From the NCBI GenBank assembly GCA_041653115.1, contig JBAZGA010000006.1:734-64733 (forward strand): a DNA stretch of 64,000 nucleotides. The letters are read 5' to 3'. The DNA is from Candidatus Omnitrophota bacterium (lineage in GTDB: Bacteria > Omnitrophota > Gorgyraeia > Gygaellales > Profunditerraquicolaceae). The notes below the pieces were generated by a model. That model saw nothing but the letters and a program-made list of their open reading frames with translations, made no database searches and was not told where the DNA came from. A program made the translations under genes and the position numbers. This document shows, piece after piece, positions 3,116-60,343 of the stretch; the first letter of the stretch is position 1, and each line of letters begins with the position of its first letter.

Positions 3116-3432
3116 TTAACGATGCTCCCTAACCTTACTTTTTTCTCCGGGCTGATAATAGCGATGCCGGCTTCATCCGCGGCCGCCAAAATCATCCCCT
3201 GGCTTTCTACTCCCCGCAAAAGAGCGGGTTCTAAATTATCCACCAGCACAACCTGCTTGCCCACTAAATCTTCTTTTATGTAGGAGGTCTTGATACCTGC
3301 CACCACTTGTTTGGTTTTATCGCCCAAATCTACAGTAATGATATAAAGCCTGTCGGCATTGGGATGATCGTTAACCTCTTTTATTTCAGCGACTTTGAAC
3401 TCTAATTTCCTAAAATCTTCGATGCTGACCAT
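3112..3432 (-). CDS. Stand-alone tRNA-binding domain protein (CsaA / Trbp111 / Myf-domain OB fold)
   Basis: VNDHPNADRLYIITVDLGDKTKQVVAGIKTSY...GVESQGMILAA matches the tRNA-binding OB domain found in MetRS C-termini, PheT N-termini and CsaA. Confidence 0.7.
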   Translation of the reverse strand: MVSIEDFRKLEFKVAEIKEVNDHPNADRLYIITVDLGDKTKQVVAGIKTSYIKEDLVGKQVVLVDNLEPALLRGVESQGMILAAADEAGIAIISPEKKVRLGSIVK

Positions 3433-3579
3433 TATTGCCCCCTTTTGACGGCCACGCTATAATTTCAGCCGATTAATTTTATATATCATAACACGGCAAA
3501 TGCCAAAAAACAAGCTTAAATAAGCCGGCAATTGACTTTTCCGGGGTATATGCTAAACTCAAATAAAAGCCGATAGGCC

Positions 3580-5049
3580 ATGTTGAGCAAAACTAAAAAA
3601 TACTGGTTAATTCTATCTTTATTTATTCTTTTTCTCGGCGTCCGCTTGTATCATTTAGGTTACCATGATTTTTGGTATGACGAAATAAGAACCATTGAAT
3701 TCGCCAAAAATCTCTGGCGCAACGACCGGGATGCCCCGCTTTATTATTTATTGCTGCGCTTCTGGATAAAGTTTTTTGGCACATCGGAATTCATTGTCCG
3801 CCTGCCCTCGGCAATTCTCAATTTTTTATCCGTAGTTTTAACTTTCTTCCTGGGCAGGAAGCTTTTCAATTTAAGGGTGGGGCTATTCGCAGCGCTCTTG
3901 ATGGGTCTCTCCCCATTTCATCTCTGGTATGCCCAGGAAGCGCGCGATTATAATCTGGCGATATTGCTGGGGGTCCTCTCTGCTTATCTGTTTTATAAAG
4001 CGGACAGGAAAGGCTCATACGGATTATGGGCTTCTTTCGCCCTGGTATCTATAGCCGGGCTATACACCCATTATTTCTACGCCCTTTTAATCCTGGGGCA
4101 GGCGTTCTTCATTTTAAGAAGAAAAACGGGCTTGGGATTCAGGCGGATTGCCCCTTTTCTGGCGATTATCTTTGGCTTTGGCTTATACCTGCCGAGGCTA
4201 CTGAAGAAATTCAGCTTTAGCCAAAATGAAATCTGGATAGCCCCGCCTACGCTGAAATCAATAATTATTTCCCTGGAAAACTTCATTCTGGGCTACAACG
4301 GCTCTCGCGCGCTTTATCTCTGCGCGGATACCATCGCCGTGATACTTTTTATTACGGCCTTAAAAGGCTTATCCAAAAAAGAATTAAAGGAGCCTGTTTT
4401 AATGTGCGTATTTTTATTCTTTCTTCCGCTGGCTGCCGCTTTCTTTTTCTCCAGGCAGTTTTTCCCTGTATACGTGGACCGGCGACTGATTATCTTTACG
4501 CCATATCTTTACCTGCTTTTAGCCCTGGGGATTACCTGCCTGGGCAGACGTATAAGATGGGCGCTATTGAGTCTTTTGTTCTTTATTTTCTGCATTGCCG
4601 GCTACAACTATTTTCATGACCGGCTGTTTATGCCCTTTGAGCATCATCTTGGCGCATTTATCAAAAAGCCGTTTAAGCCGGCAGTTAAATTCTTGGAAGA
4701 TAACGCCCGCTCTGAAGACGCGCTCGCTTTTACGGATATCTCGGCTATGCCTTCCATAAAATTTTATGGCCGGGGGCAATTAAAAAACCCCTACTTCTTC
4801 TTTGACCCGCGCATCCCTGCCGATATCGCCTGGCATCGGCCTCGCTGGAAAAGTATTCCTTTGGAAAAAACAAAGTCGCTGCGGGTAAGAAAAATCTGGG
4901 TTGTTTACGCAAACTGGGCAAGGAATGACAAGTGGGACGCTAATACCCGGTCGGTAAAAAAATGGCTGGAGCGCCGCTATAAGCAGGAATTAACGAAAGA
5001 ATTTGATGGCTTATATATAGTTAGATACTTAAAAAAATGGGGTCCTTAA
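3580..5049 (+). CDS. GT-C fold membrane glycosyltransferase (family 39/83, ArnT/PMT-like)
   Basis: 489-aa polytopic membrane protein. Its N-terminus (RLYHLGYHDFWYDEIRTIEFAKNL) is typical of dolichyl-phosphate-mannose / undecaprenyl-phosphate-sugar transferases. Confidence 0.6.
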   Translation: MLSKTKKYWLILSLFILFLGVRLYHLGYHDFWYDEIRTIEFAKNLWRNDRDAPLYYLLLRFWIKFFGTSEFIVRLPSAILNFLSVVLTFFLGRKLFNLRVGLFAALLMGLSPFHLWYAQEARDYNLAILLGVLSAYLFYKADRKGSYGLWASFALVSIAGLYTHYFYALLILGQAFFILRRKTGLGFRRIAPFLAIIFGFGLYLPRLLKKFSFSQNEIWIAPPTLKSIIISLENFILGYNGSRALYLCADTIAVILFITALKGLSKKELKEPVLMCVFLFFLPLAAAFFFSRQFFPVYVDRRLIIFTPYLYLLLALGITCLGRRIRWALLSLLFFIFCIAGYNYFHDRLFMPFEHHLGAFIKKPFKPAVKFLEDNARSEDALAFTDISAMPSIKFYGRGQLKNPYFFFDPRIPADIAWHRPRWKSIPLEKTKSLRVRKIWVVYANWARNDKWDANTRSVKKWLERRYKQELTKEFDGLYIVRYLKKWGP

Positions 5050-20278: not shown

Positions 20279-21373
20279 TTAAGCTTTATCCATCAGTTTG
20301 GTGAATTTTTCAAATAAATAACCGGCATCGCGGGGGCCGGGTCCTGCCTCCGGGTGGTATTGCACGCTGAATAGTCTCAATTTTTTATTCTCCATCCCTT
20401 CAGGCGTATTGTCGTAGAGGTTTATATGCGTCATCTCGGTATTCTTTCGCGGAATGCTTTTGATATCCACGCAAAAACCGTGGTTCTGCGCGGTAATGGC
20501 GACCCTGCCGGTCTTTAAATCCTTAACCGGGTGATTCCCGCCGTGATGGCCGAATTTCAGTTTATATGTTTTCCCGCCCAGGGCCAGCCCGAGCATCTGA
20601 TGCCCAAGGCAAATCCCGAATATCGGCACCCTGCCGATTAATGCGCTGGTGGTCTTAATCACATAAGTGACTGCTGCCGGGTCGCCTGGGCCGTTAGACA
20701 ACAAAACGCCGTCGGGCCTTAGCTTAAGGATTGCTTCTGCGGGAGTCTCAGCCGGTAGAACGCGCACGCTGCATCCGGCAAGCGCAAGATTACGCAAGAT
20801 GTTAAATTTAATCCCGCAGTCTAAAGCCGCCACCTGATAACGCGCTTTCTTTTTTGCTGGTGCGGTATTCTTCCAGTCATAAGGCTCTTTGCAGCTAACT
20901 TCTTTGACCAGATCCCTGCCAAGCAATTTAGGCGCTGCTTTAAGCTTCTCCATCAGGCTTGCCAGGTCAAAATCCCTGGTAGAGATTACGCCTTGCATCG
21001 CGCCCTCTAAACGGATGTGCCGGGTGAGCGCGCGCGTATCAATACCCTGGATACCGACGATATTATTTTTCTTCAGGTAATCGCCCAGTTCCATATTGGA
21101 GCGCCAGTTTGAGCGGATGGCGCTTAATTCCTTAACTATAAAACCTTCAACCCAGGGCCTCGCCGATTCTACGTCCTGGTCATTGACGCCGTAATTACCG
21201 ATTAGAGGATAGGTCATGGTCACAATCTGGCCCTTGTAAGAGGGGTCGGTAATTATCTCCTGATAACCGGTGATAGAAGTATTAAAAACCACTTCGCCAA
21301 AAGCCTCGCCCTGGCTGCCAAAATTCTCTCCCCTAAAACTCGTTCCGTCTTCTAAAAGGAGTATCGCCTTCAT
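20279..21373 (-). CDS. carA: Carbamoyl-phosphate synthase small (glutaminase) subunit
   Basis: 364 aa with the class-I GATase triad region GICLGHQ. Confidence 0.9.
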
Positions 21374-21822
21374 CTTAATAATGCCTTTACTTCGGCCACT
21401 GCCTCATCCACAGTCTTTACCTTAATTAGCCCTGGGATATCCCAAGAGCCCAAGCTTATTACCGGTATCTTAAATTGTAAACAATAGGCAATTTCTGAAA
21501 GAGTCCCGGCTTCTCCGGGAAGTGCTACCACCACATCTGCGCTCTTGACCACCAAGACGTTTCTGGCTAAACCTAAGCCGGTGGGAAGCGCGATATCCAC
21601 GAATTCATTGGCGTCCTTTTTGTCGTAACTTGGTATAATACCTATAGTTAATCCGCCTTCCGCCTTAAAGCCAGAGCAAACCGCCTTCATCGTTCCACTC
21701 AAGCCGCCAGAAACAAGAATATTAACCACTTTAGCCAGTTTTTTACCTAAATCATGGGCAATTTGCTCCACTTCTTTCGTAGGATTATGCCCACCAATGA
21801 CACTGACTACCCTTTTACGCAT
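21370..21822 (-). CDS. LOG/TIGR00725-family Rossmann-fold protein (SLOG)
   Basis: The SGGLSGTMKAV and LPGEAGTLSEI motifs correspond to the GGxGxM and PGGxGTxxE signatures of the LOG family. Confidence 0.65.
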   Translation of the reverse strand: MRKRVVSVIGGHNPTKEVEQIAHDLGKKLAKVVNILVSGGLSGTMKAVCSGFKAEGGLTIGIIPSYDKKDANEFVDIALPTGLGLARNVLVVKSADVVVALPGEAGTLSEIAYCLQFKIPVISLGSWDIPGLIKVKTVDEAVAEVKALLR

Positions 21823-21921
21823 ATATTTTTCCTATCGAACAGCTATTTTGCGGGTGGCTTGGGTGTTTTCGAGCCACGTGATGCGGCGAGAAAATACCCA
21901 AGACAGGACCCGCAACATATC

Positions 21922-21950
21922 AAGCGCGCCTGGACAGAGTCGAACTTGTC
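21922..21950 (-). repeat. Partial direct duplicate of the tRNA-Arg 3' end (T-arm plus acceptor 3' strand), without a matching 5' half
   Basis: aagcgcgcctggacagagtcgaac occurs at 21922-21945 and again at 22069-22092 (24/24 identical, followed by t/-tgtc). No GCGCCTG 5' acceptor partner lies upstream of the first copy. Confidence 0.7.
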
Positions 21951-21970
21951 GCTCGCCTGTGCTCGCTCCT

Positions 21971-21996
21971 TAAGAGGGGGCATGCCCCCTCTTAAT
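21971..21996. repeat. Perfect 26-nt palindrome TTAAGAGGGGGCATGCCCCCTCTTAA, flanked by further C5/G5 hairpins (GTGGGGGA...TCCCCCAC and CTTACAG...CTGTAAG)
   Basis: Read directly from the sequence. It lies inside the 123-bp segment bracketed by the two tRNA-Arg 3'-end copies. Confidence 0.8.
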
Positions 21997-22071
21997 GTTC
22001 TCCCCCAAACGTGGGGGACATCTCTTTTCCCCCACACCCCCTTACAGTTCGCCTCTGTAAGAGTAATTAAG

Positions 22072-22143
22072 CGCGCCTGGACAGAGTCGAACTGTCACAC
22101 CTGGCTCCGGAGGCCAGTGCGCTATCCATTGCGCTACAGGCGC
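22072..22143 (-). tRNA. tRNA-Arg (anticodon CCG)
   Basis: Minus strand: GCGCCTG TA GCGC AATGGATA GCGC A CTGGC CTCCGGA GCCAG GTGT GACAG TTCGACT CTGTC CAGGCGC G. Anticodon loop CTCCGGA. CCA is not encoded. Confidence 0.8.
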
Positions 22144-22152
22144 ATCTATAAG

Positions 22153-22659
22153 TTATATCCGCTGTGTCCCCGGAGGGGACAGGCGCATTGCTGCTTTAAT
22201 TTCAGAAAGAACCAATTCTTTATTTTTAACTTTAAATTGCTGAATAGAAAACCGCTGGAAACTTTTGGCGCCTTTTTGCGCTAAAATATCCTGCATATAA
22301 TTAAGACAGCGATTATTGCCTGTACCGCTACCGTAGGTAGTAAATAAGACTATTTCTTTACCTGCTGCGCCAAGGCATTTATCCAGGTACGTATTCATTG
22401 CCGGCGCCGGCCCAAATGCCCAAACCGGCGTGCCAAAACAAATTAAATCATAAGCGCCTAAATCAAAATTCACGCTTTCAAGTTCGGCCCTGCTACGCGT
22501 AAAGGCACGGCGGCACTGTCCGAAAAAAGAGCCTGCTTCATCCGCCGCCTTTAATTCAATTTCTGTTACTCCGCCCTTCTGGCTTAAGTACCCGCAAAGG
22601 GTTTGCGCCACTTTTCGGGTATTCCCGCTAAAAGAATAGTAAATAACTATACTTTTCAT
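22153..22659 (-). CDS. Flavodoxin-like FMN protein
   Basis: The N-terminus IVIYYSFSGNTRKVAQ carries the flavodoxin phosphate-binding loop. 168 aa. Confidence 0.7.
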   Translation of the reverse strand: MKSIVIYYSFSGNTRKVAQTLCGYLSQKGGVTEIELKAADEAGSFFGQCRRAFTRSRAELESVNFDLGAYDLICFGTPVWAFGPAPAMNTYLDKCLGAAGKEIVLFTTYGSGTGNNRCLNYMQDILAQKGAKSFQRFSIQQFKVKNKELVLSEIKAAMRLSPPGTQRI

Positions 22660-22677
22660 GACGGCAAAATTTTATGT

Positions 22678-22968
22678 TTAATAGGCGGTCTCCGCCACTA
22701 TTTCGCAACCCACAATACTGCCTATCACCTTGCTATACTCTAAGTCCTCTATAAGCTGCTCAAAACCCCGCGTCTGTCCGCCATTGAAGCCATTTATAGT
22801 GATACTGGCAATATAAAGGGGCCTTTTTTTCAGGTATAAGAATATCCGGAAAAGTACAGCCTGATAATTCTGGAGCGATGCGTTGGTTATTTCTCCGTTT
22901 ATCACCAGCCGGTCGCCGTTAGCCTGTTTTTTAAAAGTGACGTTAGAATAATGAAAGTGTTTTAACAT
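22678..22968 (-). CDS. Hypothetical protein (96 aa)
   Basis: ORF only. It sits between the flavodoxin and the PHP-domain gene on the same strand, and I recognise no family. Confidence 0.35.
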   Translation of the reverse strand: MLKHFHYSNVTFKKQANGDRLVINGEITNASLQNYQAVLFRIFLYLKKRPLYIASITINGFNGGQTRGFEQLIEDLEYSKVIGSIVGCEIVAETAY

Positions 22969-49164: not shown

Positions 49165-49239
49165 GGCGACGTAGCCAAGCGGCAAGGCAGCTCTCTGCAA
49201 AAGAGCTATACAGCGGTTCGAATCCGCTCGTCGCCTCCA
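49165..49239 (+). tRNA. tRNA-Cys (anticodon GCA)
   Basis: GGCGACG TA GCCAAGCGGCAAGGC A GCTCT CTGCAAA AGAGC...GGTTCGAATCC...CGTCGCC T CCA. Confidence 0.85.
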
Positions 49240-49240
49240 T

Positions 49241-49267
49241 TTAATTTTTCCGATAAGGAAAAATTAA
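49241..49267 (+). terminator. AT-rich perfect hairpin TTAATTTTTCC-GATAA-GGAAAAATTAA immediately after tRNA-Cys (possible processing site or terminator)
   Basis: An 11-bp perfect inverted repeat read from the sequence. No clean U-tract follows. Confidence 0.35.
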
Positions 49268-49355
49268 ATGGCACTCAAGCGAGCGTAGCGAGGCGACAAG
49301 CCGAGCAGCGAGCAGAGTGCATAGGTAGTTTTTGCGAGGGACTAAGTTCTTATAG

Positions 49356-49438
49356 GGGCAAGTGGTGGAATGGCATACACGAAGGACTTAAAATCCTTTG
49401 GCCGTAAGGTCGTGAGGGTCCGACTCCCTCCTTGCCCA
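49356..49438 (+). tRNA. tRNA-Leu (anticodon TAA) with a long variable arm and an atypical T-loop (TCCGACT)
   Basis: GGGCAAG TG GTG GAATGGCATA CAC G AAGGA CTTAAAA TCCTT TGGCCGTAAGGTCGTG GAGGG TCCGACT CCCTC CTTGCCC A. The D-arm and anticodon arm align with E. coli tRNA-Leu. Confidence 0.6.
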
Positions 49439-49514
49439 TGAAATTTTGCTGCGTAAAATTTCACCCCGAGCATTTGTGATAACATAAGTTTGAGCGAAGG
49501 GTAATAATATTTAA

Positions 49515-49591
49515 GGGCGCTTAGCTCAGTTGGATAGAGTACTTCCTTGACATGGAAGGGGTCACAGGTTCAAATCCTGTAGCGCCCACCA
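49515..49591 (+). tRNA. tRNA-Val (anticodon GAC)
   Basis: GGGCGCTTAGCTCAGTTGGATAGAGTA CTTCC TTGACAT GGAAG...GGTTCAAATCC...AGCGCCC A CCA. Confidence 0.85.
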
Positions 49592-60137: not shown

Positions 60138-60343
60138 TTTTTTGTAAAGAGAGTAGTTATTTGAAAATATCCCTGCCGTGCACGTTGGAAAGCGCGATAA
60201 TTGGTGAACCAACACCACCATAAAGGGAGCCTGATACTCCTTTGGGGCTTAGGCGTCAAAGGGAGGGCACCCACTTTTAGGCAAGACGGTTCAGCCTATT
60301 TGCTTCCAACGGCACAGTGCGGGGATTTTTTTTGCCCGCGCTC

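Follow-up and report, generated by a model that had tools for sequence, protein, structure and literature searches.

Some mobile elements enter the 3' part of a gene and leave it intact, with a spare 3' end displaced downstream. This logic is established for integrase islands at transfer RNA (tRNA) genes and for the GIY-YIG element of mitochondrial atp6. Integrative islands targeting tRNA and transfer-messenger RNA (tmRNA) genes, along with att-flanked elements lacking genes (CIME-like), were reportedly treated by Williams (NAR, 2002) and by Pavlovic and colleagues in 2004. The Allomyces mitochondrial GIY-YIG element is said, after Paquin and colleagues in 1994, to carry a replacement 3' end of atp6. 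Repetitive extragenic palindromic (REP) sequences and their mosaic arrangements (BIMEs), enterobacterial repetitive intergenic consensus (ERIC) sequences and Correia elements present a different case, being dispersed intergenic repeats of bacteria that are co-transcribed. Here we describe a small structured insert located behind the gene for tRNA-Arg(CCG) in a 64-kb stretch of a Candidatus Omnitrophota genome (contig JBAZGA010000006.1; this whole stretch, harbouring seven tRNAs, is called the window). The insert belongs to a dispersed family, family 1, with copies at tRNA, 5S ribosomal RNA (rRNA) and protein genes. With even confidence, we propose that it is one copy of a non-autonomous double-hairpin cassette that enters and leaves by recombination through a repeated segment of its host.

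The last 22 nucleotides (nt) of tRNA-Arg, AGTTCGACTCTGTCCAGGCGCG (22093..22072), are exactly repeated at 21946..21925, at a spacing of 147 nt and without any tRNA 5' half. The exact repeat extends 3 nt into the trailer, to 25 nt in total, and reaches 28 nt if one mismatch is allowed (22066-22093 and 21919-21946, same spacing). An earlier reading of the bare sequence (the sequence-only reading) had reported this duplication together with a perfect 26-nt palindrome and a hairpin-rich insert, and all three observations hold. The palindrome, TTAAGAGGGGGCATGCCCCCTCTTAA, lies at 21970-21995 and occurs only once in the window. The segment between the two tail copies, 119-125 nt long depending on how the repeat is delimited, folds into a closing helix and two hairpins with -58.1 kcal/mol (z = -4.3), and no shuffle was equally stable. 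What had been missed is an inverted copy of the T-arm at 22044-22058, here called anti-T, which can pair with either copy of the T-arm sequence. The statement that the insert contains no open reading frame (ORF) is right with respect to credible genes. It is not right literally, as mechanical ORFs of 64 amino acids (aa; 21843..22037, minus strand) and 176 aa (21754..22284, plus strand) overlap the region; both pass through the tRNA or lie antisense to it, with no support for their being genes. The components of the locus are listed below.

22143..22072, minus strand: intact tRNA-Arg(CCG), host gene of the cassette (ARAGORN; full-length Rfam tRNA, 65.9 bits)
22066..22093, minus strand: left direct-repeat copy X, comprising T-loop, 3' strand of the T-stem, 3' strand of the acceptor, discriminator and 6 nt of trailer (CTTAAT)
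22071..22059, minus strand: tRNA trailer or spacer CTTAATTACTCTT, 13 nt, unconserved in relatives, which have unrelated spacers of 7-17 nt there
22058..22044, minus strand: anti-T segment ACAGAGGCGAACTGT, reverse complement of the tRNA T-arm at 14/15 positions (inverted-repeat pair)
22011..22041, minus strand: first G5 run and hairpin P2 (GUGGGGG at 22035..22029 with CCCCCAC at 22017..22011)
21996..22010, minus strand: linker GUUU-GGGGG-AGAACA, with the conserved third G5 run
21970..21995, minus strand: hairpin P3, the perfect 26-nt palindrome
21948..21969, minus strand: conserved right-end motif GGAGCGAGCACAGGCGAGCGAC (family consensus GGAGYGA..GA(G/A)CGAC)
21919..21946, minus strand: right direct-repeat copy X', 22 nt identical to the tRNA 3' end followed by CTTGAT, without a tRNA 5' half

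A chance repeat or a mis-assembly would make all of this an artefact, and we regard that as negligible. Nothing speaks for it except that repeats in metagenomes are in general liable to mis-assembly. The 22-mer is present exactly twice in the window while none of 100 window shuffles contained two matches, and an independent Logan assembly of run SRR18595300 holds the identical tRNA-insert-copy sequence on one contig (L160; also L159). These two results together speak against both chance and mis-assembly, and the same architecture is present at 24 other loci.

A covariance model was built on the core of the insert, i.e. two G5/C5 hairpins followed by GGAGCGA..GAGCGAC. In the family, the core is about 100-130 nt long and consists of hairpins P2 and P3 (G5/C5), two more unpaired G5 runs and the right end GGAGYGA..GA(G/A)CGAC. 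Scanning of metagenome contigs for the P3 pattern matched 75 of them, and with the model 84 full-length cores were then recognised in genomes of Omnitrophota and in metagenome contigs, of which 78 are distinct. The source organisms of these contigs are putative, and a few contigs are identical to loci of Omnitrophota metagenome-assembled genomes (L148 = L045, L154 = L010). The search for more copies suggested by the sequence-only reading thus found none elsewhere in the window and many outside it. The same reading would have counted itself refuted if the palindrome were a common intergenic terminator motif. Common and intergenic it is, at the level of the phylum, with 75 exact-pattern matches in metagenome contigs. 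The terminator part does not hold, as no minus-strand terminator-like site was found in 21300-22800. An intrinsic terminator was also rejected from the insert's own layout, which lacks a U-tract (only GUUU comes after P2, and AAGGAG after P3).

Both hairpins are supported by covariation. In the 78 distinct copies P2 and P3 are 97% paired, and double changes are abundant, far above shuffled and slid-register controls. P2 alternates between U-A and C-G (47 and 23 copies) and between G-C and A-U (61 and 10 copies); in P3, 98.6% of cells are paired and G-C alternates with A-U (50 and 25). The linker of relatives receives a variable hairpin or a nested mini-palindrome. Rfam 15, searched with the whole window at the gathering threshold, with the region at E values of up to 10 and with 18 related loci, gave no match on the element. 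Nothing was recovered but tRNAs, 6S RNA, 5S rRNA, a thiamine pyrophosphate (TPP) riboswitch and group I introns, with matches at chance level near the window insert. The published work retrieved on Omnitrophota repeats, on miniature transposable elements with inverted repeats (MITEs) at tRNA T-loops and on GIY-YIG proteins with tRNA duplications contained nothing describing family 1, which is apparently undescribed. Viral contigs were scanned with three patterns, of which that of P3 had no match. P2-based patterns gave three candidates, two of which (L082, L083) were discarded as spurious G+C-rich hairpins. The third, at 3195-3307 of a 180-kb IMG/VR contig (L081), is a weak partial match (39 bits) with a P2-like hairpin and AAGGAGCGAGCG, without P3 and with no tRNA nearby.

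The copies can be divided into four classes according to their neighbours. Class i, located behind tRNAs, includes 25 copies (20 called loci and five genomic) at nine isoacceptors: Gly-CCC, Gly-TCC, Thr-GGT, Thr-CGT, Arg-CCG, Arg-TCT, Lys-CTT, Gln-TTG and Trp-CCA. Their order is invariant in 25/25: tRNA, spacer of 7-17 nt, anti-T segment, core, GA(G/A)CGAC, and a copy of the 3' end of that very tRNA. The repeat starts 21-31 nt from the tRNA 3' end and is 9-48 nt long, at least 21 nt in 22 of the 25, and 14 repeats extend into the local trailer by 1-25 nt. Class ii follows 5S rRNA (L104/L121, L144, L158), flanked by two copies of the 5S 3' end, one antisense and one sense, with the antisense copy past a terminator-like hairpin. 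In class iii the core lies upstream of tRNAs, at a fixed distance of 86-93 nt and within a unit of about 290 nt. This unit ends with GTTTACTTG-N17-18-TATAGCGAACGAC, which resembles a -35/-10 promoter and stops directly at tRNA +1, exactly so in 13/17 loci (e.g. L114, L118, L140, L141); this suggests that class-iii tRNAs are transcribed without a 5' leader. Class iv precedes protein genes, among them dnaK, infC, ndk, an HU-like gene and cysE, and the distance from the end of the copy to the start codon is 2-19 nt in all 16 cases. The left flank of class-iii and class-iv copies forms a hairpin with the strand upstream of it and does not pair with the right flank, and there is no host-derived flank. 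The plan common to all classes is therefore X, loop, anti-X, core and GA(G/A)CGAC, to which classes i and ii add another X. The sequence of the closing helix varies between copies and the pairing is retained.

Some further observations concern these loci. A GAACGAC motif also stands ahead of the left hairpin in many class-iii units. The idea that the right-end motif GAGCGAC is a promoter discriminator was discarded, as it fits class iii only and not the window copy. Group I introns interrupt tRNA genes just downstream of class-iii copies in L110 (803-1017), L125 (1324-1524) and L130 (533-734); the split tRNAs of L110 and L125 are initiator-tRNA-like, and ARAGORN calls none of the three. The tRNA-like 3' ends upstream of L130, L157 and L088 were considered as tmRNA and rejected, as neither ARAGORN nor Rfam called one; that of L130 is the 3' exon of the tRNA with the group I intron. 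A palindrome, GCCTGCCTGCCGGYAGGCAGG, is inserted within family-1 cores, within T-loops of spare tRNA ends and elsewhere, and a 15-nt insert, AGTTTTAATTCCCCC, within hairpin P2. Loci with such tiny nested insertions are L102, L104/L121, L135, L052, L057; L089, L090, L096 and L152.

The minus-strand gene order in the window is a flavodoxin-like gene, tRNA-Arg, the insert, a gene of the SLOG/LOG family (21822..21370), carA and carB. The LOG protein was used to scan species-representative genomes and gave 80 loci, almost all labelled Candidatus Omnitrophota, with a best identity of 84%. In 75 of these, tRNA-Arg(CCG) is directly upstream of LOG on the same strand. They are separated by 4 to 1524 nt, with a gap of only 4-30 nt in roughly one third of the genomes, so the empty state is common. 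In sixteen relatives the gap is larger and includes a copy of the tRNA 3' end, often 6-12 nt ahead of the LOG start, which is the position of the tRNA end in empty loci. In four other species (L010, L060, L051, L079) this position is taken by an insert of clear homology to that of the window. With the window counted, family 1 is thus found at this locus in 5/76 genomes. The comparison of orthologous loci proposed by the sequence-only reading has accordingly yielded occupied as well as empty sites. Carriers are interspersed with non-carriers, and the nearest LOG relatives of carriers mostly have small gaps of 4-26 nt or are otherwise without family 1. The model detected no further family-1 copy at other LOG loci, save two upstream of tRNA-Arg (L014, L045).

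The core of the carriers is strongly conserved though their LOG proteins are only 69-83% identical. RNAalifold, applied to the five sequences, returned three helices, i.e. the closing helix, P2 and P3. The closing helix is formed by anti-T and the T-loop and T-stem of the 3' copy, and its compensatory changes track the T-arm of each host. Other relatives have unrelated small inserts (families 2-4) in the same frame between anti-T and 3' copy, and L014 has a 91-aa GIY-YIG ORF in this frame. Larger gaps contain an acyl-CoA-ligase-like ORF, unknown ORFs, a GIY-YIG ORF and a 23S_rRNA_IVP ORF; an integrase ORF or fragment was found in none of the larger inserts examined at this locus. The 23S_rRNA_IVP (four-helix-bundle) ORF lies in L079 at 3573-3947, where the family-1 element and then the spare tRNA end immediately precede it. 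Its protein family typically occurs within intervening sequences of rRNA.

These data bear directly on the explanation that a duplicated tRNA end first calls to mind, a classical att scar. According to it, a tyrosine-integrase island entered the T-loop region of tRNA-Arg and was decayed or deleted to attL, attR and about 120 nt of junk. The direct repeat, as expected for both borders of such an island, copies the tRNA 3' end (22-28 nt) from the T-loop onwards, which is reportedly a known sublocation of integrase attB sites (Williams, NAR, 2002), and relatives commonly have tRNA 3'-end copies here. However, an integrase-borne island should show an integrase, its remnant or a larger integrase-bearing form in relatives, and here there are about 120 nt without a credible ORF and no integrase in the larger inserts. 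The repeat enters local, non-conserved trailer sequence. Island families use one attB or tRNA species each, whereas the same core stands behind 5S rRNA and at least nine tRNA species, with a matching repeat particular to every one of these genes, which the attP of one integrase cannot explain. Nor would a conserved, covarying module at 84 places be expected from islands that decayed independently. We consider the att scar largely refuted and very improbable, and the proposal of the sequence-only reading that the insert is the remnant of an excised integrase island is likewise not supported. Family 1 does resemble tRNA/tmRNA islands and their gene-less CIME-like derivatives in that it is inserted at the 3' part of the tRNA, leaves the gene intact and displaces a 3' copy starting at the T-loop downstream. 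It differs by the missing integrase, the cargo of about 120 nt, the additional inverted target copy and the existence of copies without a tRNA flank.

The patchy distribution points instead to a recombining cassette. Such a cassette would be mobile or recombining DNA that is non-autonomous and brings no recombinase of its own, entering and leaving by loop-in/loop-out recombination (Campbell-type or homology-driven) through the repeated host segment; the gene would therefore remain intact and a spare 3' end would be left downstream. Highly conserved stable-RNA genes might serve as both portable homology and landing site between genomes, because their near-identity across species would provide ready-made homology for transfer. 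In the window, loop-out would leave the tRNA 3' end joined directly to CTTGATATGTTGCGGG, and a circle or tandem junction would read ..GAGCGACA-AGTTCG..CGCGCTTAAT-TACTCTT. Loop-in/loop-out or slippage fits better than a staggered-cut duplication because the repeat contains trailer bases, its start in the T-arm varies, and arrays and solo units exist. Once lodged, the cassette would probably be co-transcribed with the tRNA, adopt the three-helix fold and pair its inverted copy with the T-arm sequence. Mobility, its route and any effect on the transcript are what we infer, while the data themselves show family membership, the architecture at many genes, hairpin covariation, strict co-orientation, patchy distribution and empty sites.

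Several features of the copies suggest such mobility. Carriers are scattered at the tRNA-Arg/LOG locus, where different cargos occupy the same frame. GIY-YIG ORFs count among the cargos found next to partial tRNA duplications, a 3' copy in L014 and a 22-nt 5' copy of tRNA-Tyr in L124. A comparable polymorphism is seen in class iii, as the Leu-Val tRNA spacer of the window (76 nt) has no copy and L107 and L133 have one of 271-330 nt there. Tandem arrays and leftover flank units (L096, L108, L127) and smaller palindromes nested within cores are typical of mobile repeats. In the Cys-Leu-Val tRNA cluster of the window (49165-49591), the Cys-Leu spacer also contains an element of about 70 nt (..GGCACTCAAGCGAGCGTAGCGAGGCGACAAGCCGAGCAGCGAGC..) that is common to L107 and missing in L133.

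The nearest of the suggestions made by the sequence-only reading is that of a MITE-like element targeting tRNA. Many dispersed copies (84) and presence/absence polymorphism (empty sites at tRNA-Arg/LOG and Leu-Val) agree with it. MITEs have, however, conserved terminal inverted repeats of their own, while the flanks of family 1 are derived from the local gene, vary by site and are absent in classes iii and iv, and the family also uses sites other than tRNAs. Neither is its repeat a target-site duplication of fixed length, because it varies between 9 and 48 nt. Double-hairpin mobile elements have been described in Allomyces mitochondria (Paquin et al. 2000, as cited in PMC3787672). Like these elements and mitochondrial GC clusters, family 1 consists of small G+C-rich, two-hairpin intergenic repeats in an A+T-richer genome, with presence/absence polymorphism, and a host-gene 3' end duplicated beside a GIY-YIG ORF, as with mitochondrial mobile endonuclease ORFs, has its counterpart in L014 and L124. 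Unlike the mitochondrial systems, family 1 resides in a bacterial chromosome, keeps a strict orientation relative to genes and has host-derived flanks, one inverted and one direct.

A number of points weigh against the recombining cassette. No circular junction or excision product was seen, and no search aimed at either was made. The flanking repeat of 22 nt is short for RecA-type recombination, and there is no mechanism we can name for the inverted copy. No transposase, integrase or nuclease is linked to family 1 and none lies in the insert, nor was an autonomous relative with a transposase seen in the loci examined; a phmmer search found no GIY-YIG ORF in the window, which has a single family-1 copy in 64 kb despite its seven tRNAs. 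In some loci the two flanking copies are unequal (L094, L135, L152, L144, L158), with the inverted copy matching the functional gene. Unequal flanks in L094, L135, L152 and L086 could be evidence of transfer or else chimeric assemblies across the repeated core, and we downgrade this evidence because short-read assemblies can join two loci through a shared core. Finally, the roughly 70 copies with a classifiable neighbour are all co-oriented with it, and every neighbouring tRNA is on the strand of the element. Such strict co-orientation argues for function or constraint at the level of transcript or promoter and not for random selfish insertion.

Co-orientation is indeed the first support for a different explanation, that of a functional cis-acting RNA module kept by the host. 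Its role in tRNA trailers, tRNA leaders and mRNA 5' untranslated regions could be one in processing, stability or insulation, with the inverted copy sequestering the spare T-arm or forming a processing stem, and would spread by ordinary duplication. We consider it possible, if rather doubtful. The close and uniform distance of protein-gene copies from the start codon and the conservation of the core between genomes with diverged LOG proteins agree with it. So do the mismatches of the upstream-strand helix, 8 G-U against 0 A-C in 45 distinct copies, and the four outer pairs of P2, which are G-U in 36-67 of 72 copies. The window promoter scan found no minus-strand promoter-like site between tRNA-Arg and LOG, which makes co-transcription of the tRNA with LOG-carAB likely; they are probably co-transcribed, to judge from sequence. 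On the other hand, G-U and A-C mismatches are equally frequent in P2 and P3 (10 against 12), so these hairpins carry no signal specific to one strand. An intrinsic-terminator-like hairpin precedes the 5S-associated copies, most relatives lack the element at the same locus, and no Rfam family matches it. In the predicted fold of a read-through transcript the true tRNA 3' end would face competition from the unpaired spare acceptor strand, which would be a cost and no benefit. A narrower version from the sequence-only reading, a structured RNA or protein-binding site specific to LOG-carA-carB, is not supported, as most relatives are empty there and the element occurs at dozens of unrelated loci.

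The recombining cassette and a maintained RNA module are compatible, as REP and Correia elements show. Family 1 shares with REP/BIME, ERIC and Correia repeats the nature of a short, structured, multi-copy intergenic repeat in transcripts with a possible influence on processing or stability. REP/BIME units are palindromes of 20-40 nt with a conserved head tetranucleotide, alternate in orientation and are linked to a RAYT transposase. Family 1 differs from these repeats in having, by eye, no GTAG-type head and no alternating arrangement, in lacking fixed terminal inverted repeats and a TA-type duplication, and in its specificity for the 3' ends of stable-RNA genes.

The agreement between flank and host raises one more possibility, that of guided or mimicry-based insertion. 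Here the inverted copy would be a programmable guide or, folded with the direct copy, a single-stranded mimic of the target duplex, and an enzyme acting in trans would insert the cassette behind the stable-RNA gene that matches its flank. Family 1 would then be a protein-less parasite of stable-RNA genes, its flank used as a programmable address by a structure-specific nuclease or recombinase, for which a GIY-YIG protein is a candidate. We judge this unlikely, both as a mechanism and as a description of the family. The inverted copy always matches the local gene, whether tRNAs with different T-arms or the 5S 3' end, and the closing helix changes its sequence and keeps its pairing. This match could, however, simply have come with the gene by inheritance, a repeat of variable length speaks against a precisely guided cut, the family has no linked enzyme, and the classes upstream of tRNAs and protein genes have no host-derived flank. 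Small, structure-prone GIY-YIG nuclease ORFs beside tRNAs with partial tRNA duplications fit the idea. Stand-alone ORFs of this kind (about 85-95 aa, PF01541) adjoin tRNA genes on the same strand in five loci, and their products are possible trans-acting nucleases for the cassettes:

L014, 5589-5861: GIY-YIG ORF between tRNA-Arg and its 3' copy
L124, 6380-6694: GIY-YIG ORF between a 22-nt 5' copy of tRNA-Tyr and tRNA-Tyr itself
L115, 1726-2016; L146, 2657-2917; L099, 2302-2574: GIY-YIG ORFs beside tRNA genes

Two described systems are relevant to the mimicry. The attP(+) hairpin of CTX phage is said, after Val and colleagues in 2005, to mimic dif. Family 1 resembles this site and integron attC in its imperfect hairpin of 60-150 nt with a stem reproducing the target duplex. 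Where attC has the boxes R''/R' (RYYYAAC / GTTRRRY) at the base of its hairpin, tRNA-linked copies read ..TCGAAC / GTTCGA.., with one deviation per box, and stems of 5S-linked copies are unrelated and have no AAC/GTT boxes. In contrast to attC sites, which lie at cassette 3' ends next to intI/attI, family 1 neighbours tRNA, rRNA and housekeeping genes; it has no cassette ORFs and no shown link to IntI or Xer. Casposons reportedly make long target duplications at tRNA 3' ends, as described by Krupovic, Beguin and colleagues. Family 1 shares with casposon and CRISPR-type integration a long duplication including the 3' end of a tRNA gene, but its repeat varies between 9 and 48 nt, compared with a fixed 14-15 nt, and it has neither Cas1 nor conserved terminal inverted repeats.

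The surroundings of tRNA-Arg in the window contain further structured sequences. The 5' end of the tRNA is doubled too: ATGCGCCTGT, made up of 2 nt of leader and the first 8 nt, occurs at 22188..22179 and 22145..22136 (minus strand), and the two copies enclose the hairpin GTCCCCTCCGGGGAC (22136-22188, minus strand). A similar upstream mini-element (GCGCCTGyCCC..GGGGACACrGCGGATA) precedes tRNA-Arg in L019, L044, L064 and L073, and a different, tRNA-minihelix-like one in L003, L029, L055, L057 and L072. Between the spare tRNA end and the LOG start there is a second conserved structure (21844-21919, minus strand), a long hairpin TTGCGGGTCCTGTCTTGG...CCAAGCCACCCGCAA, the base of which recurs with a far larger apex (155-213 nt) in L022, L054 and L095. 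This structure may be a further palindromic insertion or else the leader of LOG-carAB. Elsewhere in the window, a 6S RNA gene is located at 60167-60329 (plus strand; Rfam 58.6 bits, above the gathering score).

If the recombining cassette is real, a little-known and largely uncultivated phylum has a widespread small DNA/RNA module that lands on tRNA and 5S genes, the most conserved of the cell, without breaking them. A forward and a backward copy of a host-gene tail constantly occur together, for which there is, to our knowledge, no textbook mechanism, and these paired copies would point to an unrecognised way of DNA insertion or stabilisation. Should the flank really be a programmable address, the cassette could hop between tRNAs and 5S rRNA by changing about 15 nt. 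The locus is also a cautionary case against automated calls of "island scars" at tRNA genes, and family 1 is a source of chimeras in metagenome assemblies because its near-identical repeat of about 100 nt adjoins tRNAs. Finally, it may offer a handle on the processing of tRNA-mRNA co-transcripts, here with an arginine tRNA directly upstream of carbamoyl-phosphate synthetase genes.

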